In this document: positions 1 through 7,786 of the stretch, one piece after another
Numbering within the stretch: the stretch's first letter is position 1
Layout: the number at the start of each line of letters is the position of its first letter
Origin: a virus
Lineage: Duplodnaviria > Heunggongvirae > Uroviricota > Caudoviricetes
Virus record (IMG/VR): IMGVR_UViG_2737471865_000007
Strand: one strand, 5' to 3'
Length of the DNA stretch: 13,979 bases
Program-made: the position numbers and the translations under genes
The notes under the pieces: generated by a model
Database searches by the model: none
Told to the model about the DNA's origin: nothing
The model's input: the letters and a program-made list of their open reading frames with translations, nothing else

Positions 1-2
1 TA

Positions 3-212
3 ATGTGGAATTGCGGGATGAATATTGAAGAGATAGCAAAAGAATTAAAAGTAACCTGCTTTCATGTCTGGGGCTTGTTGAGTGAAATCCTGCCACGTAA
101 GGAGCTTAATCAACGTTTGCCTAAGCCCGGTAGTCGTGCTTATCGCGAATTTATATTCATCTACCGCCGCCATAGAAATAAAGTCCAGAAAGCAATGGCC
201 CAGAAAGCCTAA
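3..212 (+). CDS. Hypothetical small protein (69 aa), possible helix-turn-helix DNA-binding protein
   Basis: ORF from six-frame track; ATG overlaps an upstream in-window TAA (TAATG at 1-5), suggesting translational coupling to a gene ending at the window edge; segment NIEEIAKELKVT resembles an HTH. RBS not visible because of the window edge. Confidence 0.4.
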   Translation: MWNCGMNIEEIAKELKVTCFHVWGLLSEILPRKELNQRLPKPGSRAYREFIFIYRRHRNKVQKAMAQKA

Positions 213-818: not shown

Positions 819-1208
819 ATGCCTATGAATATTGAAGAAATGATAGTTGAATTCGAAGAGGGTGATTTCCTGGAAGAAGGGGAGTTTAAATACTCCCGTT
901 TTAAACAGGCGTTATTTAGCAGCGATGATAAACCCCACGTTAGTGATCTTAATGATGATGATTTATGTCGCTTGGTGTGCACCCGCTTATATGAAGATGG
1001 AAAGTATACAGGCCAAAACTTTCCAAATCTCTATTTCAAAGCACAAACATTTGAGGAAGGGCAAAGAGTGAAAAACCTGGTCGATAAAATGCTGTCAGCC
1101 GGATATTTGCATAAAGAATTATTAAATCCTAAAGCTGAAAGCAAGCGCCATTATATTTTTGTGTGGACTATTGGCGATAAGTGTCCACTAAGACGCAAAG
1201 GCAAATGA
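819..1208 (+). CDS. Hypothetical acidic protein (129 aa); position and acidity compatible with a tail assembly chaperone
   Basis: ORF directly upstream of the tape-measure gene; strongly acidic N-terminal half (EEMIVEFEEGDFLEEGEF). Function is positional inference only. Confidence 0.5.
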   Translation: MPMNIEEMIVEFEEGDFLEEGEFKYSRFKQALFSSDDKPHVSDLNDDDLCRLVCTRLYEDGKYTGQNFPNLYFKAQTFEEGQRVKNLVDKMLSAGYLHKELLNPKAESKRHYIFVWTIGDKCPLRRKGK

Positions 1209-1209
1209 T

Positions 1210-1446
1210 ATGAATACCTACGAAAAGATTTATCAAAAACTGGTTAAGGACTCCGAAGAGATACCCGAAGTGGTGACAATAGGTCACCTGCCAGAGGCAG
1301 CGAAAGAGAGGTCCACCATTATTAAAAGTGGCTCCCACACAGAAGGCCTCTCAATCGAAGAGCTTGCGGAGAAATATAATATTGATAAAGAGGCCCTGAA
1401 AAGGGCTATTTCATTATCAAAATCTTTAAGACAGGGCGAGGTATAA
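1210..1446 (+). CDS. Hypothetical protein (78 aa) with HTH-like segment
   Basis: Start overlaps upstream stop (TGATATG at 1206-1212); its stop TAA (1444-1446) is 1 nt before the ATG of the next gene, indicating a tightly coupled operon. Confidence 0.45.
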   Translation: MNTYEKIYQKLVKDSEEIPEVVTIGHLPEAAKERSTIIKSGSHTEGLSIEELAEKYNIDKEALKRAISLSKSLRQGEV

Positions 1447-1447
1447 A

Positions 1448-3568
1448 ATGGCAATGAAGGAAGTCGCCAAGCTAACAAACGTTATTTACTGGGACTCTGA
1501 TAAATCCTCCTGGCGAAAAGAAGTTAAACGGCTTGAGGATTATAAAAAATCCTGGAAGAAAGCTACCGACGATATAGCTAAAGCGGATTTTAAATCGAAT
1601 CAGGCTGTGCTCAGAACACAAAGAACACGCGCTAAGGTGGAAGAGCAGATTGCCAGAGCTCAGAGGAAACAACAGGAAGCACAGAAGAAACAACGTGCTC
1701 AGGCTGTCAGCCGTCTGACCGGGGGCAATAATCCGGAGCTCTCCTCTATGCGCAAGTTCTATCAGCAGCAAGCCAGAGAGGCCGCCAGACAACAAAAACT
1801 GTTAGATCGTAGTGTTGGAGATGTTCAGCACAGAAAAGCACGTGTAGGGGCCAACAGTGCACGAATCAGCAGCATGTTTGATGGCTCCCTGGTTGCTCAG
1901 TTCCAAAGCAGAATCCAGAGAGTTAATGCTGATTATGCTAAAGGGGCTATTAACCTGCAGACCTATAATCAGAAAATGGCTCGGCTCAGGGCTGAAATGA
2001 AGATGGCAACAGCTGAAGCCGGAAAATTCCAGAGCAGACTGGACAGAGTGAATGGCAACCTGGGGAAACTGAATTCCACACTAGGCAAGATAGCCATTGG
2101 CCTGACTGCCGCTGGCTGGGGTGTTCAGCGTGCTGTTAGTAGTGCTATGAGTGCTCAATCTGACCATAACTCAGCCTATTATGGTTTGCTTGCTCAGAAC
2201 AAGGATGATAAAGCCAAGACTGACCAGCAGATGGCTTTTATCGAGAACACAGCCAACACCTACGGTATGGATCAGCGTGAGATGGAGGGTGGCTATATGC
2301 GTTTTGCTGCCGCTACTCCCACCATGAAGGAATCTGATAAGCAGGCTCTCTTTGAGGCTATGGCTATTAAAGGCCGCTCAGTGGGTGCTACTGGCGAGCA
2401 ACAGAACAGGGCGCTTGTCGCTATTCAGCAAATGGCTGGAAAAAATCGCGTGATGGCAGAAGAGCTGCGGGGCCAGCTGTCAGAAGCCTTTGCAGGCTCT
2501 CAGCAGGACTTCCAACAGGCCGCTATTGATGCCGGAATCATCAAGAATGCCCAGGAATTCGATAAGGCCATGAAAGATGGCAAAATCACCCTGGACAAGC
2601 TACTTCCTTCTTTGGTGAAAATCTGGGGTGCTGCAAAAGAAACTGACGCTTTTGCGAAATCTATGCAACAGCCGGAAGTGGCATTGCAAAGAATGAGCAA
2701 CCAGTTTTTTAAACTAAAACAATCCTTTATGGGTGTTGTGGATCCTGCGGATGGCGTCATTACCCTGTCAGAATCCCTTATTTATATCTTTGAAGATTTA
2801 TCCTCAATTTTCAGTAGCTCAGGTGAAGATGCCAAATCTCTCGGAGTTATGTTAGGCGAGGCAATGCATGAAATTTATTTTTGGGTTAACTGGGCTTGGT
2901 GGTGGACTAAGAAGATCGCTAAAGGCATTGGTGAGACGTTAGGCTGGACCGCACAGGATGCAGGCGAGAAGATTGGCCAGGTTGTGACCGCCCTGTTAGG
3001 CCTGAAGGTTGCAACAAGCATTGCTGGCATGGTTGGCGGCCTTATTTCCATGCTGTGGAAACTTAAAGCGGCGCTTAGTGCTTTAGTCGGTGTTGGTGAT
3101 ATCAGCACTGGAGGCACAGCAGGTAAAGGCAGACCAGGTAGAGGCGGCTTTATCGGGAAAGCAGGCAGACTTGGAGGAAGATTTGCAGGTCCGGCAGGGA
3201 TTGTTTTGACAGGATTTGACATTGCAAATAGCTTAGATTCCTACTGGCAGAATCCTGATAATCAGCGGCAGGAAGGAGCTAAACATCCTGAATGGTTAAC
3301 CAGTATGGTTAATAGTGCTTCCAGCTTCCTCGGACTTGATTATCGTCTCGATGCAGGACGCTACATTACCAGACCAACACCAACGGGTGGTATTGCTATT
3401 CAGAATGGAGGCTATCAGCCGACTCAAATCAGTGTAGTTCCGCAGGGTGAGATTTCCGGCAAATGGGAGATAACTATTGATGAGGGGGGAATTGCCAGGG
3501 TGATTCAGAAGGAAGTCAGCGATCAGTTGGATTGGAAAGCCACACAGGAATCTAACCAGCTTTTCTAA
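1448..3568 (+). CDS. Phage tail tape-measure-domain protein (706 aa)
   Basis: N-terminal K/R/Q/E-rich coiled-coil region, central segment matching the tape-measure domain signature as I recall it (NRALVAIQQMAGKNRVMAEELRGQLSEAF), C-terminal glycine-rich hydrophobic segments; GAGG 6 nt upstream of ATG. Confidence 0.75.
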   Translation: MAMKEVAKLTNVIYWDSDKSSWRKEVKRLEDYKKSWKKATDDIAKADFKSNQAVLRTQRTRAKVEEQIARAQRKQQEAQKKQRAQAVSRLTGGNNPELSSMRKFYQQQAREAARQQKLLDRSVGDVQHRKARVGANSARISSMFDGSLVAQFQSRIQRVNADYAKGAINLQTYNQKMARLRAEMKMATAEAGKFQSRLDRVNGNLGKLNSTLGKIAIGLTAAGWGVQRAVSSAMSAQSDHNSAYYGLLAQNKDDKAKTDQQMAFIENTANTYGMDQREMEGGYMRFAAATPTMKESDKQALFEAMAIKGRSVGATGEQQNRALVAIQQMAGKNRVMAEELRGQLSEAFAGSQQDFQQAAIDAGIIKNAQEFDKAMKDGKITLDKLLPSLVKIWGAAKETDAFAKSMQQPEVALQRMSNQFFKLKQSFMGVVDPADGVITLSESLIYIFEDLSSIFSSSGEDAKSLGVMLGEAMHEIYFWVNWAWWWTKKIAKGIGETLGWTAQDAGEKIGQVVTALLGLKVATSIAGMVGGLISMLWKLKAALSALVGVGDISTGGTAGKGRPGRGGFIGKAGRLGGRFAGPAGIVLTGFDIANSLDSYWQNPDNQRQEGAKHPEWLTSMVNSASSFLGLDYRLDAGRYITRPTPTGGIAIQNGGYQPTQISVVPQGEISGKWEITIDEGGIARVIQKEVSDQLDWKATQESNQLF

Positions 3569-3675
3569 TGTCCACTCTGTGGATTTGAGTTCTACTCAAA
3601 CCTGCATAGCAGGCACTGATATTGTGATCAAAATCAATAAGTTAGCCTGACCGGATAAACTCCAGGCAAGAAAAA

Positions 3676-3701
3676 AGCCCCTAAGTGTTAACAAAGGGGC
3701 T
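3676..3701 (-). terminator. Intrinsic terminator for the leftward (minus-strand) operon
   Basis: 7-bp stem AGCCCCT/AGGGGCT (3676-3682 / 3695-3701) with 12-nt loop; on the minus strand the stem is followed by UUUUUCUU (plus 3675-3668). On the plus strand the downstream tract is not U-rich. Confidence 0.5.
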
Positions 3702-3731
3702 CTTCTCCGGTATCCTTTTGATGCGGGGCAA

Positions 3732-3779
3732 AACCTGCTAACAAAAATCAACCTCTCGCGAGACTAATGTTAGCAGGTT
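3732..3779. repeat. 12-bp perfect inverted repeat (AACCTGCTAACA / TGTTAGCAGGTT) flanking a 24-bp spacer that contains the palindrome TCTCGCGAGA
   Basis: Read directly from sequence; spacer carries a variant (TCAACCTCTCGCGAG) of the 15-nt motif found upstream of two genes at 8049 and 8568. Confidence 0.6.
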
Positions 3780-4120
3780 GCCGGAAGGTAAGTCAACTCC
3801 GGCCTATAAACCTTAAAGCGACTATAAAATCGCCCCGCCAATTGTGATGATCCGACCTTTGAGGCGGGTCCGGTGCCCAGGGGGTGCAGTGATGCACAAA
3901 CCAGGCAACGATAAACAGGCTAACAGTGATAGCGGCGCTCAATCAGCGCACTAAATCCTAACCAGTCCGGGAAAGAGGCTGGCTCTATCGACCGCTCATG
4001 CACGGGACAATGCATACCTGATAAAGGATTCTCACAAGGGACCAATCGCGAGAAAAGAAGTGGAAAGGGGCTGATTTGTGGTGTATCACTACGGCCTCAA
4101 AAGAACACTATTACCTTTTT

Positions 4121-4573
4121 TCAGCCTCTACCTACATTTGACCAATACTTGATTGCACCGATCAAATCATCATAGTGGCGCATTGCATCATTGAAGCCTT
4201 TATAGCTTGCCCATTGTGGTGAAACCTTGTTATTGCTGAATTGCCCACTAATCAGGATAGTCTCCAAAATGTCGGCATATCGCTTGCCAATTCGCTTTCT
4301 GACGGCCTCAGAGCTTCCACCCTTTACGATTGCATTAATCAGGGCTTTTGTGTGTCTCAGGCTCTCATAGAGCATTGCAGCGTGGGCAGATTCCATAAAG
4401 GAGCGCTTAGGCAAATCACCCCACCCCTCAGAGTGGATAGCCGCCAGTGTGGCGTAATTCAGGCCGCTATAGTGCTTTCCGTCATCCCAGCCAACCGCTA
4501 CACCTTCCATCTGTGAGAGCTCTTTATGCAGCTTATCCATCATGCGCTTGTCTATGGTGCAACGGACTTTCAT
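4121..4573 (-). CDS. Hypothetical protein (150 aa)
   Basis: ATG overlaps stop of upstream gene (ATGA overlap at 4573-4570), implying translational coupling; no assignable motif. Confidence 0.55.
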   Translation of the reverse strand: MKVRCTIDKRMMDKLHKELSQMEGVAVGWDDGKHYSGLNYATLAAIHSEGWGDLPKRSFMESAHAAMLYESLRHTKALINAIVKGGSSEAVRKRIGKRYADILETILISGQFSNNKVSPQWASYKGFNDAMRHYDDLIGAIKYWSNVGRG

Positions 4574-5346
4574 TTTGTAGCATCCTTGGCAAATTTGGCT
4601 TGCCTTTGCTGATCATAAATGTCTTTTGTGCTCATAGCCCCATCATTTTCATCGAGCAAAGTTTGTAAATTTTTAGGCTTAGCCGATGGGGTGTTGGTTG
4701 AGTTCCCGACGTTGCTATTCTTCTCAGCACTGTTAACAGCACCCTTTTGCTGTGTTTTGTTCACCTTCTTACTGTTAGTGAAAACTCCGGCATTTTCGAC
4801 CATCTTCACCTTGAAGGTGCGGAATTCTTCAAAAGTGCAATCAATAGTGATGCAGTCACCAGAGGAAGAGCTACGCTTAACTTCACATTTCGTCATGATG
4901 AAGTTCTCAAGAAGTCCGGCATCTTCACTAACCAGGCTAACCAGCTGGCGCTTGTCTCTCATTTCCATAAGAGCACGCACAGCGGCGGCAGGGCGCATTG
5001 ATTCAAGGGGATTATCTGGATCAGTGTTCCGGTCGATGTAGTTCTCTTTCCGGATGATATGAGGGGAAGAGGTAATAATCCCTGTAAAGCTGACAGATTT
5101 ATCTTTAATGACGGCATGGTCTGACATGGTGGTGCCATCCTCGACCGCATAGCTCGATTTCTCGACAGGGAACGAATAGCTGACATCAGAGATTGAGTCA
5201 AAGAAGATAGCCACGTTATCGGTATAGTTGAAGCCATCCATTATATTTTTGTTTTGTGAATATCCCCCACACATAACAGTGAATGCAGGAGATCTCGACT
5301 CAGCTTGTTTTGCAGCTGTCAGAGCATCACTAGCCATATTAAACAT
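4570..5346 (-). CDS. Hypothetical protein (about 259 aa; start ambiguous between 5364 GTG, 5346 ATG and 5337 ATG)
   Basis: ORF in six-frame track; GGAGG (complement of 5348-5352) lies upstream of the ATG at 5337; low-complexity K/N/S/T-rich C-terminus. Confidence 0.5.
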   Translation of the reverse strand: MFNMASDALTAAKQAESRSPAFTVMCGGYSQNKNIMDGFNYTDNVAIFFDSISDVSYSFPVEKSSYAVEDGTTMSDHAVIKDKSVSFTGIITSSPHIIRKENYIDRNTDPDNPLESMRPAAAVRALMEMRDKRQLVSLVSEDAGLLENFIMTKCEVKRSSSSGDCITIDCTFEEFRTFKVKMVENAGVFTNSKKVNKTQQKGAVNSAEKNSNVGNSTNTPSAKPKNLQTLLDENDGAMSTKDIYDQQRQAKFAKDATK

Positions 5347-5496
5347 GCCTCCAAATTGGTCCACTTCATGGATTTGGCTAAAGCCAAACCTGCAAAAGAT
5401 GCAGGCAAAATAGAACTTATCGTTGCCCTGCTTAAAATCTGCAGAAAATACAGGGCAGTTATTCGTTAGAATCGCTTATAGCTCTTCCCGAGAGCG

Positions 5497-5748
5497 TTAT
5501 TTTGCAAAACGATTATGGGCATTCAGGGCTTTTTTGCGGTCCTGGGCTTGTTTGCGTGCAATAAAATGTTCGAAAGTCTCGGCCCAGGTGCATTTATTAT
5601 ATTCACGGTATTTATGCATAGCCTGGCGGCTAACGTCATAGCAGGCGGCAAATGTGGAGATACGCAGGAATTCCGGCAGATCCTCGTCATCGATATGGAT
5701 AATATCAAAAGGCACGTCATCACGGTCGCCGTATAAAACAATTTTCAT
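5497..5748 (-). CDS. Small protein (83 aa) with HTH-like segment (possible DNA-binding regulator)
   Basis: ATG at 5748-5746 preceded by GAGGTG (complement of 5755-5760) with 6-nt spacer; segment AACYDVSRQAMHKYREY is HTH-like. The six-frame track extends the ORF to a GTG at 5757. Confidence 0.5.
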   Translation of the reverse strand: MKIVLYGDRDDVPFDIIHIDDEDLPEFLRISTFAACYDVSRQAMHKYREYNKCTWAETFEHFIARKQAQDRKKALNAHNRFAK

Positions 5749-5777
5749 AAAAGACACCTCAAAAACTTAAGACGGGG

Positions 5778-5806: not shown

Positions 5807-5834
5807 AGCTAAGCCCTTTGGGTCTGTGGATAAC

Positions 5835-5890
5835 AAAAAAGGGAAGAGGGAAAGACCTATCCCCGATCTCTCACCTCTTCCCTTTGCTTT
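5835..5890 (-). terminator. Intrinsic terminator immediately after the major capsid gene (hairpin could act in both directions)
   Basis: 9-bp stem GGGAAGAGG/CCTCTTCCC (5841-5849 / 5874-5882) with 24-nt loop; on the minus strand it is followed by UUUUUU (plus 5840-5835); on the plus strand by TTTGCTTTT. Confidence 0.6.
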
Positions 5891-6921
5891 TATTTAGCCT
5901 TGGCAGCGGCGGCGGTGTTTTTAACACTCACTTTAACCACAACTTCAGGCATCATGTTCATGAAAGCATAAGAGGATTCAACGAAGATTTCGCGTTTGCC
6001 TCTGGACTCTTCCATATACATGAAAGCTTCACGTGCAGCGCCGTTTGCCAGCTTCAGGTTGCGAGCGCAAGGGCCGAAAAATTGAGTATAAACGCCCACC
6101 ATATCGCCTAACGCATGCGGCTGGAACTGTGGGACTAGATAAGCAGTATTCTCTGGCAGACTATCCATTTGCACCACACGCAGAGCTAAGCCCGGAATGC
6201 GGAAGGTCGGGAAGCCCGGCAGAATATCCTCGGGGAACATCAGACCTTTGTCGGTAATATTCTGATTGCCGAACAACAGCACTTTTCTCAACAGTTCATC
6301 AGTCTGAATTGCAGCAAAGAGTTCAGCACGGCAGAACAGGGTGAAACCACGCAGAGCGCGAACAACACCACGCTGTTTAACCTTGCTCAGTGCAACCAGG
6401 TCCTGCAGCTGTTTAAGGATATCTTTAGCTAAATCCACTTCGGAAGTAGTTTGTTGTGCGCCCAGCAGTTCGCACACATTCAGTTCTTTACCCTTGGTGA
6501 GGATAATTTTGTTCTCAAAGAGAGCAAGCTGGCGTGCTTCTTCGTGGGTCTGGCGTAAGCCTTCGCCCAGTTGAATAACACGACGAGCGGTTACAGACTC
6601 TAAATTCTCTTCGGAATCTTTGCCAGGAACACGAATACCCTGCCAGTCAGAAGGATAAATAGCACTTGATGCGGCAGTGAACGCCATATCACCCGTGCCC
6701 GTTTCACGCTCATCTGCGGTAATGGTCGCCATCTGTTCACCGTAGCGCGGATACTGACCGAAAGCGGTTTGTTTCACCTGGCGAACTTTGTCATATTCAA
6801 ATTTAAAGGTATTGCACAGAGCAGTAGTGTTGAAGATATCCATTGCTGAAATAATCTGGTTATCCAGCGGGATGTCTTTAATCAAGCCACACAGATCGCG
6901 GACTTCGAATTCTTTTTTCAT
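5890..6921 (-). CDS. Major capsid protein, lambda gpE-like family
   Basis: Segment ARRVIQLGEGLRQTHEEARQLALFENKIILTKGKE parallels the lambda E region RRRIIMQNMRDEELAIAQVEEMQAVSAVLKGK; length about 343 aa matches the family; ATG at 6921 preceded by AAGGAGG (complement of 6928-6934) with 6-nt spacer. The track's TTG start at 6927 is less likely. Confidence 0.8.
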   Translation of the reverse strand: MKKEFEVRDLCGLIKDIPLDNQIISAMDIFNTTALCNTFKFEYDKVRQVKQTAFGQYPRYGEQMATITADERETGTGDMAFTAASSAIYPSDWQGIRVPGKDSEENLESVTARRVIQLGEGLRQTHEEARQLALFENKIILTKGKELNVCELLGAQQTTSEVDLAKDILKQLQDLVALSKVKQRGVVRALRGFTLFCRAELFAAIQTDELLRKVLLFGNQNITDKGLMFPEDILPGFPTFRIPGLALRVVQMDSLPENTAYLVPQFQPHALGDMVGVYTQFFGPCARNLKLANGAAREAFMYMEESRGKREIFVESSYAFMNMMPEVVVKVSVKNTAAAAKAK

Positions 6922-6932
6922 CTCCAACCTCC

Positions 6933-7268
6933 TTATTGTGCAATTCGCAAATCGCCATTGCTGGCAGCGATAACAGCGGCTAAGCCTTCTTTATCCACGT
7001 AGGCCGGATTGATGTAGCAACCTTTGTTGGCAACAACGATAAAAGCATCACCAACCTCAGCACGTTCTACAACCAGCAGCGGAGTTTTATCTGTGTGCGT
7101 TGCTTTAACGAAGGTCTCAACCTCGCCAGCCTCAGTCACCACAACAACAGTGCCAGCCGGAATCTCAGCCTTAACTTTGTTTTTAACTTCAACGTCGCGA
7201 ATACTAAATTGCTCATCTGCGGCGTATGAAATGATGTGTCCGCGTGTGCGGATAGTCATATCTCTCAT
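6933..7268 (-). CDS. Head decoration-like small capsid protein (111 aa)
   Basis: About 110-aa ORF immediately upstream of and coupled to the E-like capsid gene, which is the canonical position of a decoration/D-like protein; AGGTGA upstream of the ATG. Assignment is positional and by size, not by strong motif. Confidence 0.55.
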   Translation of the reverse strand: MRDMTIRTRGHIISYAADEQFSIRDVEVKNKVKAEIPAGTVVVVTEAGEVETFVKATHTDKTPLLVVERAEVGDAFIVVANKGCYINPAYVDKEGLAAVIAASNGDLRIAQ

Positions 7269-7749
7269 TTGATCACCTGCGATTTAAATTAACTCCCCTC
7301 AAAGGGCTCAGGTATAACCTCTCAAACCACGACAGGCTCGGGCCGAAAAGTTATGCCGGAAATCTAAAGGGGGATTGATATAAGGAGAGGGAGATAGCCC
7401 CGCACCGTCCAAGCGGGGGCTATTCCACATGGGGAAACCGACAACAGTCGGATGATAGTTCACAGTATGGTTACGGTTACTAGAGAGCACTATCACGAAA
7501 GGCACTCCCCCGAATCAGTTCAGGCTGCGGTCACATCAGCGGGGAAATACCTTTCGGGATAGCTACCCACACAGAAAACCCGCAAAAGAAAACTGTGTGG
7601 ATAACTAGCCCTGTAGGGAGAATAAGGAGAATTAATCGACCACTCAACGATGATCAGGGTAGTGTTATTTATAAGGCGGCACCGCTACCTGGTCGCCTTT
7701 ACTTTGGAGGAAAATACGGCAAATCACCTTCGCTAAATGATTCACGGTA

Positions 7750-7786
7750 TACTGTATATTGTATCAGTATTCTCTCAAATTGTCAA
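7750..7786 (-). promoter_or_regulatory. Near-consensus sigma70 promoter (leftward) overlapped by a LexA/SOS box
   Basis: Minus strand TTGACA (complement of 7781-7786), 17-nt spacer, TACAAT (complement of 7758-7763). Plus-strand 20-mer TACTGTATATTGTATCAGTA (7750-7769) fits the LexA consensus TACTGTATATATATACAGTA at the conserved CTG-N10-CAG and flanks. Confidence 0.55.

Follow-up and report, generated by a model that had tools for sequence, protein, structure and literature searches.

The stretch of DNA analysed here (the window, 13,979 bp) is one complete circular E. coli plasmid, probably of the iteron type, whose start and end are adjacent bases in a trimer record. It carries an operon for two head proteins with the following features.

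7269..7786, minus strand: capsid operon promoter and structured leader of ~480 nt, from promoter scan, fold and conservation.
6933..7268, minus strand: head decoration (cement) protein of the gpD/SHP beta-tulip type, 111 aa, from family PF02924 matches and fold.
5890..6927, minus strand: major capsid protein (MCP) of the HK97/lambda-E type, 345 aa from TTG, 343 aa from ATG at 6921.
5830..5893, minus strand: intrinsic terminator directly 3' of the capsid gene (inverted repeat I7), a stem followed by UUUUUUG.
5497..5757, minus strand: conserved product of the small gene that follows the MCP, 83 aa if started at the likely ATG 5748.

The 111-aa protein had no Pfam match of its own and tblastn against phages gave no matches. 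A family profile was built from the protein and four syntenic homologues of related elements; hhalign of the decoration family with the decoration protein of the Vequintavirus Bas58 was not significant. PF02924 HDPD, the family of lambda gpD, was matched by 25 of the 47 family members. An AlphaFold (AF2) model based on the 47-sequence alignment reached a pLDDT of 79.5, compared to 39 for a single-sequence model. The best Foldseek matches of the model were P21 SHP (1td0), lambda gpD (1c5e/8xqb) and the decoration chains of phiTE (9cul), Bas63 (9ncf), YSD1 and Sf14, with a probability of 1.0 and TM-scores of 0.52-0.61. Because there was no significant match to a phage sequence, the link to phage decoration proteins rests on the Pfam matches of the relatives and on the fold. 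It is the only virion protein of the plasmid that matches phages by fold alone. In Bas58 the corresponding position, directly before the MCP, is taken by the gene of a 129-aa 'head decoration protein'. Taken together, family matches and model argue for a gpD/SHP beta-tulip head decoration protein with a predicted capsid-binding/trimer role.

The MCP matched phrog_29 with an E-value of 3e-21. PF03864 Phage_cap_E was matched by 11 of 12 aligned relatives (best 1.7e-28), though not by the window's own copy. In tblastn the protein was 24-25% identical to the MCPs of Vequintavirus (rV5-type) over 97% of its length. The family profile matched phi92 gp124 (E 1.7e-35) and the phiTE MCP (E 3e-30) in the PDB, both over the full length. 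Profile and transitive evidence thus indicate that the protein belongs to the HK97-fold lambda-E MCP family.

The promoter (7786->7758) has a near-consensus sigma-70 sequence, TTGACA-17-TACAAT with TG, in which 11 of 12 positions match. Promoter and leader are located in a 1-kb non-coding region upstream of the decoration gene. The leader folds with a z-score of -5.2, and its identity of 94-100% among seven plasmids is above that of most coding regions. The terminator has a folding energy of -33.6 kcal/mol with a z-score of -3.9. A gene for 53-86 aa follows the MCP in every related element examined; the product encoded here is 34% identical to its L011 counterpart and weakly matches bas58_0134 (E 1e-3). 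Thus the main elements that the earlier note had described from the letters alone were confirmed, i.e. two adjacent head genes at precisely these coordinates, one decoration-like and one E-like, with a regulatory region before them and a strong terminator straight after the capsid gene.

The plasmid also carries genes for tail proteins.

4570..5364, minus strand: tail-tube initiator (Dit-like baseplate protein), 264 aa, PF21821 E 1e-24, phrog_5197 1.5e-100.
4121..4573, minus strand: neck/tail-completion-like protein, 150 aa, phrog_222 'tail completion or Neck1' E 1e-28.
3569..4120, unstranded: convergent intergenic region, a candidate cis-acting site or ncRNA, from conservation profile, ORF list and fold.
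1448..3568, plus strand: tape measure protein (TMP), 706 aa, PF20155, phrog_5255 E 1e-142, TIGR02675.
819..1446, plus strand: pair of small genes (129 aa, 78 aa) that adjoins the start of the TMP, no family match.

The tube initiator is 45% identical to the 'tail tube initiator protein' of Vequintavirus and matched the phiTE tube initiator (9cuy_K) with an E-value of 2e-34. The neck/completion protein is 43% identical to Alma_054 / Bas58_0012, which in the phage is encoded between the head genes and the sheath gene. Both genes lie just downstream of the capsid gene on the same strand, and only the TMP gene is on the opposite one; the view that the nearest tail gene is on the opposite strand had to be corrected. 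The TMP is 25% identical to those of Vequintavirus and matched the phiTE TMP (9cuy_W, E 1e-21). A variability profile showed its C-terminal region, about aa 480-680, to be hypervariable. By position only, the 129-aa and 78-aa genes are candidates for tail assembly chaperones; rV5-type phages have a 157-aa and 82-aa gene pair at the same position before the TMP. In the convergent intergenic region, positions 3700-4120 are 99-100% identical among the plasmids and contain no ORF above 51 aa. The region folds with z-scores of -3.5 on the minus and -1.9 on the plus strand and forms a hairpin with a 12-bp stem around one copy of the D2 motif.

Decoration protein, MCP, TMP, tube initiator and neck/completion protein are the five virion proteins of the plasmid, and there are no others. 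Scans of all ORFs with Pfam and PHROGs found neither portal, terminase, protease nor scaffold anywhere on the replicon, so that their absence near the head genes, which had been noticed earlier, extends to the whole element. Sheath, tube, baseplate, lysis and cargo-type genes were likewise not detected. The longest unassigned ORF has 195 aa, which makes a hidden portal or large terminase impossible. As the element is a complete small replicon, we concluded that the missing genes are truly absent.

All five virion genes have dN/dS values of 0-0.26, namely 0.14-0.26 for the decoration gene, 0.05-0.10 for the MCP, 0.08-0.17 for the tube initiator, 0-0.03 for the neck/completion gene and 0.13-0.20 for codons 1-450 of the TMP; the small gene after the MCP has 0-0.26. 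Premature stops were not found in any of the seven plasmids. Purifying selection on all five genes thus argues against a decaying remnant.

Features of replication and of the remaining plasmid are as follows.

12505..13419, plus strand: replication-initiator-like winged-helix protein, 304 aa, phrog_270 'replication initiation protein' 8e-8, phrog_678, PF13730 sub-threshold.
10528..10714, unstranded: five ~21-nt iterons (ACCTGTTGGAATTTCCCAC), presumed replication origin, direct-repeat family D1, tandem repeat with a period of 23.
13703..13979, plus strand: N-terminal part of a 162-aa protein, ORF crossing the window junction.
1..212, plus strand: C-terminal part of the same junction-spanning protein.
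8276..9181, plus strand: divergent unit of an 86-aa HTH_7 regulator-like protein (PF02796 3e-6) and a 195-aa variable protein whose N-terminus resembles a signal peptide, accessory slot.

With regard to an iteron theta plasmid, the Rep-like protein has only sub-threshold Pfam matches and the iterons are located about 1.8 kb upstream of its gene. Plasmid typing called the element non-mobilizable, and MOB-suite assigned no replicon type. The plasmid was present in 7 of 5,426 complete E. coli genomes and never on the chromosome. The seven plasmids come from the USA, Chile, Japan and South Africa, i.e. from four continents, and all copies are identical in gene content. Where related circular plasmids of 13.2-13.7 kb align with the window (73-85% of its length), they are 91-93% identical to it. 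In other plasmids the 195-aa accessory gene is 39-55% conserved or replaced, and one plasmid (GCA_002463705.1) has strAB and tet genes inserted in an accessory slot. Natural carriers include E. coli E275a, RM10740 and 7_14_47A. Searches of the accessory proteins with PADLOC and NCBIfam were uninformative, and scans of the window for tRNAs and Rfam families had no matches.

The 162-aa protein has an LYxxSWNPRCR motif and HTH-like segments. It is 28-31% identical to the product of the gene that precedes the TMP region in integrated islands, and its family comprises >146 clusters across Enterobacterales, none with a Pfam match. A function as small terminase is unsupported, the sole PHROG match having an E-value of 0.04.

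Against a whole Vequintavirus genome exactly four plasmid proteins matched, i.e. tube initiator (45%), neck/completion protein (43%), TMP (25%) and MCP (25%). The best phage matches of MCP, TMP and tube initiator are all in virulent Vequintavirinae (rV5, phiTE). With rV5-type phages the plasmid shares the gene order decoration-MCP-terminator, including the terminator right after the MCP, and the order of two small genes followed by the TMP. In agreement with the earlier note, a standard lambdoid late operon was rejected; the related phages are virulent rV5/phiTE-type myoviruses, and the gene order copies theirs. The shell of phiTE consists of MCP and a beta-tulip decoration protein at a ratio of 1:1 (PMC11972413), and exactly these two head proteins are retained by the plasmid.

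Megablast of the whole window with 50,697 phage records gave no matches, and the conserved non-coding regions shared only a terminator-like 40-mer and one weak 65-nt match with phage or related-island DNA. The extended -10 motif (TGGTAAAATA), which resembles a late promoter and recurs before the late genes of Vequintavirus, is not enriched in the plasmid. Comparison with the phage and the islands revealed no packaging signal, small terminase or helper-like DNA segment. A link to the putative helper lineage would consist of four homologous proteins at 25-45% identity; shared DNA, a common promoter motif or a pac site did not turn up. No phage with a close MCP was present among the 50,697 phage records or 1.84 billion representative proteins, and the best MCP match outside the element family was below 30% identity. 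Because the identity to the proteins of the proposed helper is this low, the real helper may be an unsampled phage.

The synteny of decoration gene, MCP and small gene is retained across Enterobacterales in relatives whose MCPs are 42%, 30% and about 25% identical; tube initiator, completion gene or TMP may be present or absent. Its carriers are metagenomic contigs and integrase-bearing chromosomal islands of E. coli, Serratia and Klebsiella. The 162-aa protein is common to the plasmid and the integrase-bearing islands and is a hallmark of the family. The lengths of many contigs of the family are grouped around 13-14 kb, which is in the range of known satellites. The common Klebsiella islands are devoid of a TMP; the lifestyle of the family hence does not depend on tail genes. 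In one relative DarT/NADAR adjoins the MCP in an accessory slot. MCP scans of species-representative genomes and of IMG/VR viral contigs found no relatives; with no match in the phage collection or in these viral contigs there is no sign of the element having been seen in particles. RefSeq labels only a "major capsid protein" among hypothetical proteins in these elements, and in open-access papers we found no description of the element or its family.

As a mobile element without a full set of virion, packaging and lysis genes the plasmid fits one part of the functional definition of a phage satellite. We favor, at somewhat better than even confidence, the view that it is a plasmid-borne member of an undescribed family of phage satellites that make a small capsid shell of their own and rely for the remainder on a Vequintavirinae-like helper. 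The analysis shows the gene content and the homologies, that the replicon is complete, that purifying selection acts and that the family is conserved; all that would follow infection by a helper, beginning with expression and including packaging, the identity of the helper and transfer, is inferred. The satellite that borrows helper functions, one of two possibilities raised in the earlier note, thus became the best-supported explanation, strengthened by the complete replicon, three tail proteins of the same lineage, the purifying selection and an arrangement conserved across a wide family. The integrated, att-bounded island did not hold up: the window is a plasmid without an integrase, and integrase-bearing relatives are found elsewhere.

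In an uninfected cell, the plasmid would replicate via the Rep-like protein and the iterons, with the capsid operon behind its long structured leader. Infection by the helper phage would then lead to production of the plasmid MCP and the beta-tulip cement protein. Both shell proteins, together with the portal, scaffold and protease of the helper, would form a smaller shell that fits ~14 kb and not ~137 kb, and the helper terminase would fill it with plasmid DNA, probably from multimers. The head would join a tail for which the helper provides sheath, tube, baseplate and fibres, and the plasmid's own tube initiator, TMP and completion protein would nucleate, measure and cap this tail. Because assembly components would be diverted, the yield of the helper should fall too. 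It speaks against this scheme that the near-consensus sigma-70 promoter could allow expression of the capsid operon without any phage.

More tentatively, and at somewhat less than even confidence, we consider the plasmid as the E. coli plasmid branch of a large unrecognised satellite superfamily of Enterobacterales, which exists as plasmids or integrative islands and parasitises big virulent Vequintavirinae-type myoviruses. Its hallmarks would be a private shell of MCP and beta-tulip cement, a protein of 160-210 aa that bears the LYxxSWNPRCR motif and, in the majority of lineages examined, a tape measure of its own.

Alternatively, the plasmid may serve defence by interfering with assembly, in which case its diverged virion proteins would be dominant-negative decoys that co-assemble with those of an infecting rV5-type phage and spoil its heads and tails; the plasmid would be neither packaged nor transferred and the bacterial population would be protected. 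Defences that block virion assembly are known (PMC10884400, PMC11364771). The plasmid proteins are homologous to exactly those phage proteins that nucleate or size assemblies, and the hypervariable C-terminus of the TMP is what an arms race would predict. That neither a packaging function nor a pac site was found and that the plasmid was typed as non-mobilizable would fit as well. Yet, the accessory proteins match no PADLOC model. A co-adapted pair of MCP and cement protein under strong purifying selection, in lineages at 22-30% identity, agrees better with a working shell than with a poison subunit, and the integrases and replication genes of the relatives as well as the clustering of contigs at 13-14 kb suggest a packaging constraint. 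We thus consider decoys unlikely. Known satellites combine interference and transfer, so this alternative is largely contained within the satellite model.

It is far less probable that the plasmid is an inert leftover of a larger phage or phage-plasmid, in which structural genes persisted by chance after genome loss, even if these genes are scattered over both strands, packaging genes are absent and the plasmid is rare. Selection on the virion genes, intact reading frames in plasmids from four continents, an identical gene content in every copy and the same arrangement at 30-42% MCP identity are at odds with decay, and no parent phage with a close MCP turned up in the databases searched. The heavily rearranged prophage remnant, the other possibility raised in the earlier note, is not supported either, given dN/dS values of 0.05-0.26, the lack of stop codons and a synteny conserved down to 30% MCP identity. 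We give equally little credence to a particle or compartment independent of a helper, be it a minimal virus whose packaging genes went unrecognised or a shell of MCP and cement protein that, like those of encapsulins or GTAs, has a cellular purpose. Metagenomes have led to the proposal of small portal-less HK97 elements (bioRxiv 10.1101/2025.06.18.659913), the promoter of the capsid operon is of the host type and several small plasmid proteins are without assigned function. On the other hand, the ORFs are too short for a portal or large terminase, cargo-type and lysis genes are absent, and TMP, tube initiator and completion protein would be pointless in an element that lacks sheath, tube and baseplate.

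If the satellite reading is right, the plasmid represents a new hijacking strategy, with its own shell and tail ruler and all else borrowed, and widens the repertoire of phage satellites by a plasmid lifestyle for a satellite of tailed phages. The combination of a private MCP with a helper's portal and scaffold would then be a natural experiment on how capsid size is set in the HK97 fold. Virulent phages of the rV5 type have found wide use in phage therapy and biocontrol of E. coli, and such plasmids and islands could lower their efficacy. Movement of genes would also be possible; one variant already carries streptomycin and tetracycline resistance genes. Should the superfamily exist, no satellite of tailed phages would have been known before to persist as a plasmid, nor one to replace the shell and the tail-length machinery of the helper while borrowing portal, scaffold, terminase, sheath, tube and baseplate. 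The common detection tool SatelliteFinder would be expected to overlook these elements, since its published rules exclude tail genes and demand an integrase.

The plasmid did not fit established classes of elements. A prophage fragment is incompatible with a complete circular plasmid, and a lambdoid late operon with relatives among virulent rV5/phiTE-type myoviruses. A phage-plasmid of the P1, N15 or SSU5 type was rejected because the element has 14 kb and no portal, terminase, sheath, tube, baseplate or lysis genes. Psu, Delta, Sid, alpha primase, integrase and cos of P4-like satellites were unmatched in Pfam and PHROGs scans of all ORFs. The structural module of the Vequintavirinae (rV5, Bas58, phiTE, phi92) is the lineage source of MCP, TMP, tube initiator and neck/completion protein; yet the identity is only 25-45%, these are phages of 135-145 kb with T=13 capsids, and the plasmid has 5 of their ~40 structural genes.

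The cf-PICIs are Enterobacterales elements of ~14 kb that encode their own HK97-type capsid protein and obtain the remaining virion from a helper phage (PMC10085698). The plasmid resembles them as a small Enterobacterales element with its own HK97-type capsid protein, its dependence on a helper being proposed. However, the head and packaging module of a cf-PICI is complete (TerS, TerL, HNH, portal, protease, adaptor, connector) and accompanied by integrase, AlpA and primase, while the plasmid encodes only the shell of MCP and decoration protein. None of these other genes, including a head-tail adaptor, was detected in the window, where replication is assigned to the winged-helix Rep-like protein and iterons. 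Furthermore, cf-PICIs are without tail genes, which are 'forbidden' in the SatelliteFinder detection model (PMC10085698), whereas the plasmid has three, for TMP, tube initiator and neck/completion protein.

Satellites of strictly virulent myoviruses, as proposed for the plasmid, are PLE of Vibrio cholerae and the PICMIs of Vibrionaceae; PLE makes small capsids and blocks its helper ICP1 (PMC10945586, PMC10803314). Both are integrated islands and homology to the plasmid was not seen. PLE remodels the helper coat protein by the external scaffold TcaP and encodes no MCP, and PICMIs have no capsid-remodelling genes. The Acinetobacter satellite phage Aci01-2-Phanie is a ~12-kb extrachromosomal element with its own capsid that needs a virulent myophage for infectivity (PMC11476376). 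Like the plasmid, it is small, extrachromosomal and equipped with capsid genes, but its linear genome is protein-primed as in phi29, it has its own portal, packaging and short tail, and it borrows only the contractile tail. The inovirus satellite pDolos is an autonomously replicating plasmid, as proposed here, and the only plasmid satellite known according to a 2025 review (PMC12282955); unlike our plasmid it replicates by rolling circle, lacks a capsid gene and relies on a filamentous phage for packaging. In SaPIbov5, a cos-type SaPI, Ccm is a homologue of the helper MCP that redirects assembly to a smaller shell via the portal, scaffold and terminase of the helper (PMC8569155). SaPIbov5 differs from the plasmid in that it resides in a Gram-positive chromosome and is induced by temperate siphoviruses; Ccm works in concert with the capsid protein of the helper, there is no decoration protein and no tail gene, and the sequences are unrelated. 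Nevertheless, this satellite-encoded MCP homologue that redirects capsid size is the nearest mechanistic precedent for what we propose for the plasmid.

Megablast of the whole window against plasmids and complete E. coli genomes matched it to small circular plasmids of 13.2-13.7 kb, which were 91-93% identical over the aligning 73-85% of the window and came from E. coli of human, bovine, chicken and feral-pig origin in the USA, Chile, Japan and South Africa. The plasmid was found in 7 of 5,426 complete E. coli genomes, in each case as a plasmid. A 39.6-kb record, a head-to-tail trimer of the unit, joins the last base of the window directly to the first. Thus, the window is one complete circular replicon, and the extended context by which the earlier note wanted its capsid module judged is the window itself. 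Scans of all window ORFs found no integrase, att site, portal, terminase, protease or scaffold, and no sheath, tube, baseplate wedge, fibre or lysis gene; the largest unassigned ORF is at most 195 aa long. The suggestion that portal, terminase, protease and scaffold genes are missing near the capsid genes therefore holds for the entire replicon, while the idea of an island bounded by an integrase and att repeats finds neither on this circular plasmid.

Main features of the replicon, with products as predicted
1448-3568, plus strand: tape measure protein (TMP), 706 aa
4121-4573, minus strand: neck/tail-completion protein
4570-5364, minus strand: tail-tube initiator
5890-6927, minus strand: major capsid protein (MCP), 345 aa from a TTG or 343 aa from the ATG at 6921
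6933-7268, minus strand: decoration protein, 111 aa
8594-9181: variable accessory slot of the backbone
10528-10714: five 21-nt iterons of the backbone
12505-13419: Rep-like winged-helix protein of the backbone

The backbone also encodes several small HTH-like proteins. The 195-aa protein of the accessory slot (8594-9181) has a signal-peptide-like N-terminus; other plasmids have a replacement or a copy that differs by about 25% (nucleotide identity about 75%). Most of them lack a 172-aa MarR-like winged-helix protein (11983-12501). PADLOC gave no informative match of either protein to a known defence family. A plasmid variant on a 30,105-bp contig of GCA_002463705.1 has an insertion between the tail-completion and TMP genes (about 13.4-21 kb of the locus) with strAB-like aminoglycoside phosphotransferase genes, an IS and tetR-type genes, and the element is therefore able to carry resistance cargo. 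The trimer record (NZ_CP043822.1, 39,610 bp, of a 13.5-kb unit) consists of unequal units of 13,531, 13,554 and about 12,525 bp. It is possibly real, and then a possible packaging substrate, or possibly an assembly artefact. Its strain, RM10740 from a feral pig, also has an integrated relative of the family on the chromosome (NZ_CP043821.1, 3428459-3437660).

Both head genes proposed in the earlier note were present on the minus strand. The product of 5890-6927 matched PHROG 29 "major head protein" in a PHROG profile search (E 3e-21) and is about 25% identical to MCPs of rV5-type phages across 97% of its length. A profile of this protein and its relatives matched the solved MCPs of phi92 (E 1.7e-35) and phiTE (3e-30) end to end, and we assign it by homology as the MCP. 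The label "E-like" held in part: 11 of 12 aligned relatives matched Pfam PF03864 (Phage_cap_E) and the window sequence itself did not, so that the label applies transitively. The 111-aa protein had no direct match in Pfam or among phages. As a profile with four syntenic homologues it retrieved 56 protein clusters across Enterobacterales, and 25 of the 47 members of its family matched PF02924 (lambda gpD family). An AlphaFold model built on the 47-member alignment (pLDDT 79.5) had its best PDB matches in P21 SHP, lambda gpD and the decoration chains of phiTE, Bas63, YSD1 and Sf14. Family and model thus bear out the proposed decoration-like character, and the protein is predicted to be a decoration protein.

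The regulatory signals were also as described. The 1 kb upstream of the capsid operon is free of genes and has a near-consensus sigma-70 promoter directed toward the operon as well as a leader of about 480 nt, which is unusually structured (fold z -5.2) and 94-100% conserved among plasmids; downstream of the MCP gene a stem of -33.6 kcal/mol is followed by a U-run. The claim that the nearest tail gene is on the opposite strand was mistaken, because the tube initiator and neck/tail-completion genes share the capsid strand and the TMP gene is the only tail gene opposite to it. A small conserved protein encoded after the MCP gene (5497-5757) had a marginal phmmer match (E 1e-3) to bas58_0134, an early-region hypothetical protein of the Vequintavirus Bas58 (94651-94983), which is too weak to interpret.

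The tail genes point to the same phages. TMP matched PF20155, phrog_5255 (E 1e-142) and the phiTE TMP (E 1e-21); the tube initiator matched PF21821 and the phiTE tube initiator (E 2e-34) and is 45% identical to a Vequintavirus protein. The neck/tail-completion protein matched phrog_222 and is 43% identical to the product of a Vequintavirus gene that sits between the head genes and the sheath gene. When all plasmid proteins were searched against every ORF of the complete Bas58 genome (136,906 bp), only TMP, tube initiator, neck/completion protein and MCP matched, in addition to the one marginal small protein. Bas58 and Alma both have a protease gene followed in turn by scaffold, a 129-aa head decoration protein, MCP and terminator; TMP is preceded by two small genes and followed by the tube initiator. 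The local gene order of the plasmid copies that of these phages. The T=13 shell of phiTE combines MCP with a trimeric beta-tulip decoration protein in equimolar amount (PMC11972413). Homology, gene order and the make-up of the phiTE shell together indicate that the plasmid retains the two shell components and the start and ruler proteins of the tail tube. The third tail protein, for which PHROG 222 gives just "tail completion or Neck1", may cap the tube. Nothing further of the virion is retained. These findings on gene content are solid and unusual.

About 17-23 'Campylobacter phage' records per phage-collection search (MG065647, MG065652, MG065654, MG065655, MG065666, MG065676 and others; mostly 135-146 kb, a few 59 kb) gave the same MCP, TMP and tube initiator matches as E. 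coli Vequintavirus genomes and seem to be rV5-type coliphages labelled as Campylobacter phages.

Between the convergent TMP and tail-completion genes lies a 420-bp ORF-free stretch (3700-4120), which is 99-100% identical in seven plasmids and more conserved than any gene. Its minus strand has a fold z of -3.5. The stretch contains a hairpin with a 12-bp stem, whose loop holds one copy of a 21-nt motif, and its candidate roles are those of an ncRNA, a partition site or a pac-like site. The motif, AAATCAACTTCTCGCAAAAGG, occurs four times (3745-3765, 7286-7306, 8046-8066 and 8565-8585). Three copies sit 1-8 nt upstream of an ATG, that of a 26-aa ORF (3767), of a hydrophobic 40-aa ORF (8075) and of the 195-aa gene (8594). 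A role as a common operator or translation-initiation element is possible. The 40-aa ORF (8075-8197) and a 49-aa ORF (11473-11622) have hydrophobic helix-like segments and could encode small membrane proteins or toxins; the latter is annotated in related plasmids (WP_157794903.1) and preceded by a sigma-70-like promoter.

An exhaustive HMMER search found just 29 relatives of the MCP among 1.84 billion representative proteins. More distant relatives, with about 25% identity, were on integrase-bearing chromosomal islands of E. coli, Serratia and Klebsiella pneumoniae and on contigs of unknown origin; island relatives occurred in 42 of 5,426 complete E. coli genomes. The island order is a 148-aa gene, a small gene, a Rep-like DUF6945 gene, a 160-210-aa gene, a gene of about 130 aa, TMP, decoration gene, MCP and a small gene; the islands examined in Klebsiella and Serratia lack TMP. 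A homologue of the 160-210-aa gene encodes the 162-aa protein that spans the window junction of the plasmid, and the LYxxSWNPRCR motif is conserved; this hallmark protein forms more than 146 Enterobacterales clusters, which carry neither a Pfam domain nor a functional name. Many contigs of the family are 13-14 kb long. Its MCP lineages are as distant from each other (22-30% identity) as they are from phage MCPs (20-25%), so that either the family is old or its module has been captured repeatedly. One K. pneumoniae island adjoining thiM/thiD is very common (indexed in 458 blocks of the collection) and carries the hallmark protein, the Rep-like DUF6945 gene, decoration gene and MCP without TMP; tail genes are therefore optional in the family. 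In one metagenomic relative, on an SRR18209023 contig (1101-2453), a DarT/NADAR (DarTG-type) pair directly follows MCP and the small gene. Such defence cargo is typical of satellites.

The most economical reading, which the balance of probability slightly favors, is that the plasmid is a phage satellite of Vequintavirinae-type virulent myoviruses, the only phages with homologous parts; inferring satellite behavior from these genes is well motivated. The small element maintains itself but has no genes for portal, scaffold, protease, terminase, sheath, tube, baseplate, fibres or lysis, so that it would depend on a helper for all of these to get into a virion. On portal and scaffold of the helper, plasmid MCP and cement protein would form a shell of a size that suits about 14 kb. 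A T=13 capsid of about 140 kb scaled by T^1.5 would hold roughly 15 kb at T=3 and 24 kb at T=4; the genomes of the satellites P4, SaPI and PLE (about 12-18 kb) are carried in T=4 capsids. The closest precedent is Ccm, the MCP homologue of SaPIbov5 (PMC8569155). The tube initiator, TMP and completion protein make sense as a group, which would start, measure and perhaps cap the tail tube. With 706 aa, TMP is about as long as those of the proposed helper lineage (680-779 aa), so that tail length would stay unchanged. Among the plasmids its residues of about 480-680 (window 2800-3400), the C-terminal fifth with hydrophobic and Gly-rich segments, are hypervariable (mean pairwise identity 0.22-0.72), while the N-terminal 480 and last 60 residues are conserved. 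A satellite-specific TMP with 200 hypervariable C-terminal residues may serve DNA delivery or defence evasion. Neither a TerS, a pac or cos site nor shared DNA was found; the trimer record suggests that multimers can form.

Pairwise Nei-Gojobori dN/dS of the window versus six other plasmids was 0.05-0.10 for MCP, 0-0.03 for the neck/completion gene, 0.08-0.17 for the tube initiator, 0.13-0.20 for the first 450 codons of TMP and 0.14-0.26 for the decoration gene, and there were no premature stops in the five virion genes of these seven plasmids. A relative with 42% MCP identity has decoration gene, MCP, small gene, Dit-like gene and a 152-aa gene; another with 30% has decoration gene, MCP, small gene and Dit-like gene, plus a long gene in convergent orientation, probably TMP. 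That these non-identical nearest relatives keep the arrangement counts against an inert remnant, as do selection and intact ORFs, and we consider it very improbable.

A plasmid that acts as a defensive decoy, spoiling phage assembly without itself being transferred, is rather unlikely in our view; it overlaps with the satellite model because satellites interfere, too. We give little credence to a helper-independent particle or encapsulin-like shell, for which the coding capacity is too small and which would not explain tail-tube accessory genes without a tube.

We favor the view of a satellite and compared it with known systems. The cf-PICIs have integrase, AlpA, primase, TerS, TerL, portal, protease and connectors, all missing from the plasmid, and lack the tail genes that it has (PMC10085698). 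The plasmid differs from classical PICIs by the lack of integrase, AlpA and primase, carries none of the hallmark genes of P4-like elements and, unlike phage-plasmids, does not have a complete phage genome. These four identities were rejected, the defining features of each being absent. Open-access full-text literature yielded no description of the plasmid or the wider family; such a description may exist elsewhere. Closest in working, as proposed from the genes alone, is a cos-SaPI with Ccm, by the shared feature of an MCP homologue. PLE and PICMI resemble the plasmid in a virulent helper and Phanie in combining its own head with a tail taken from a myophage, both proposed for the plasmid. 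The plasmid lifestyle is shared with pDolos, an inovirus satellite and the only plasmid satellite known according to a 2025 review (PMC12282955). Taken together, the element is, on well-motivated grounds, a putative kind of phage satellite whose gene content differs from that of the known classes.
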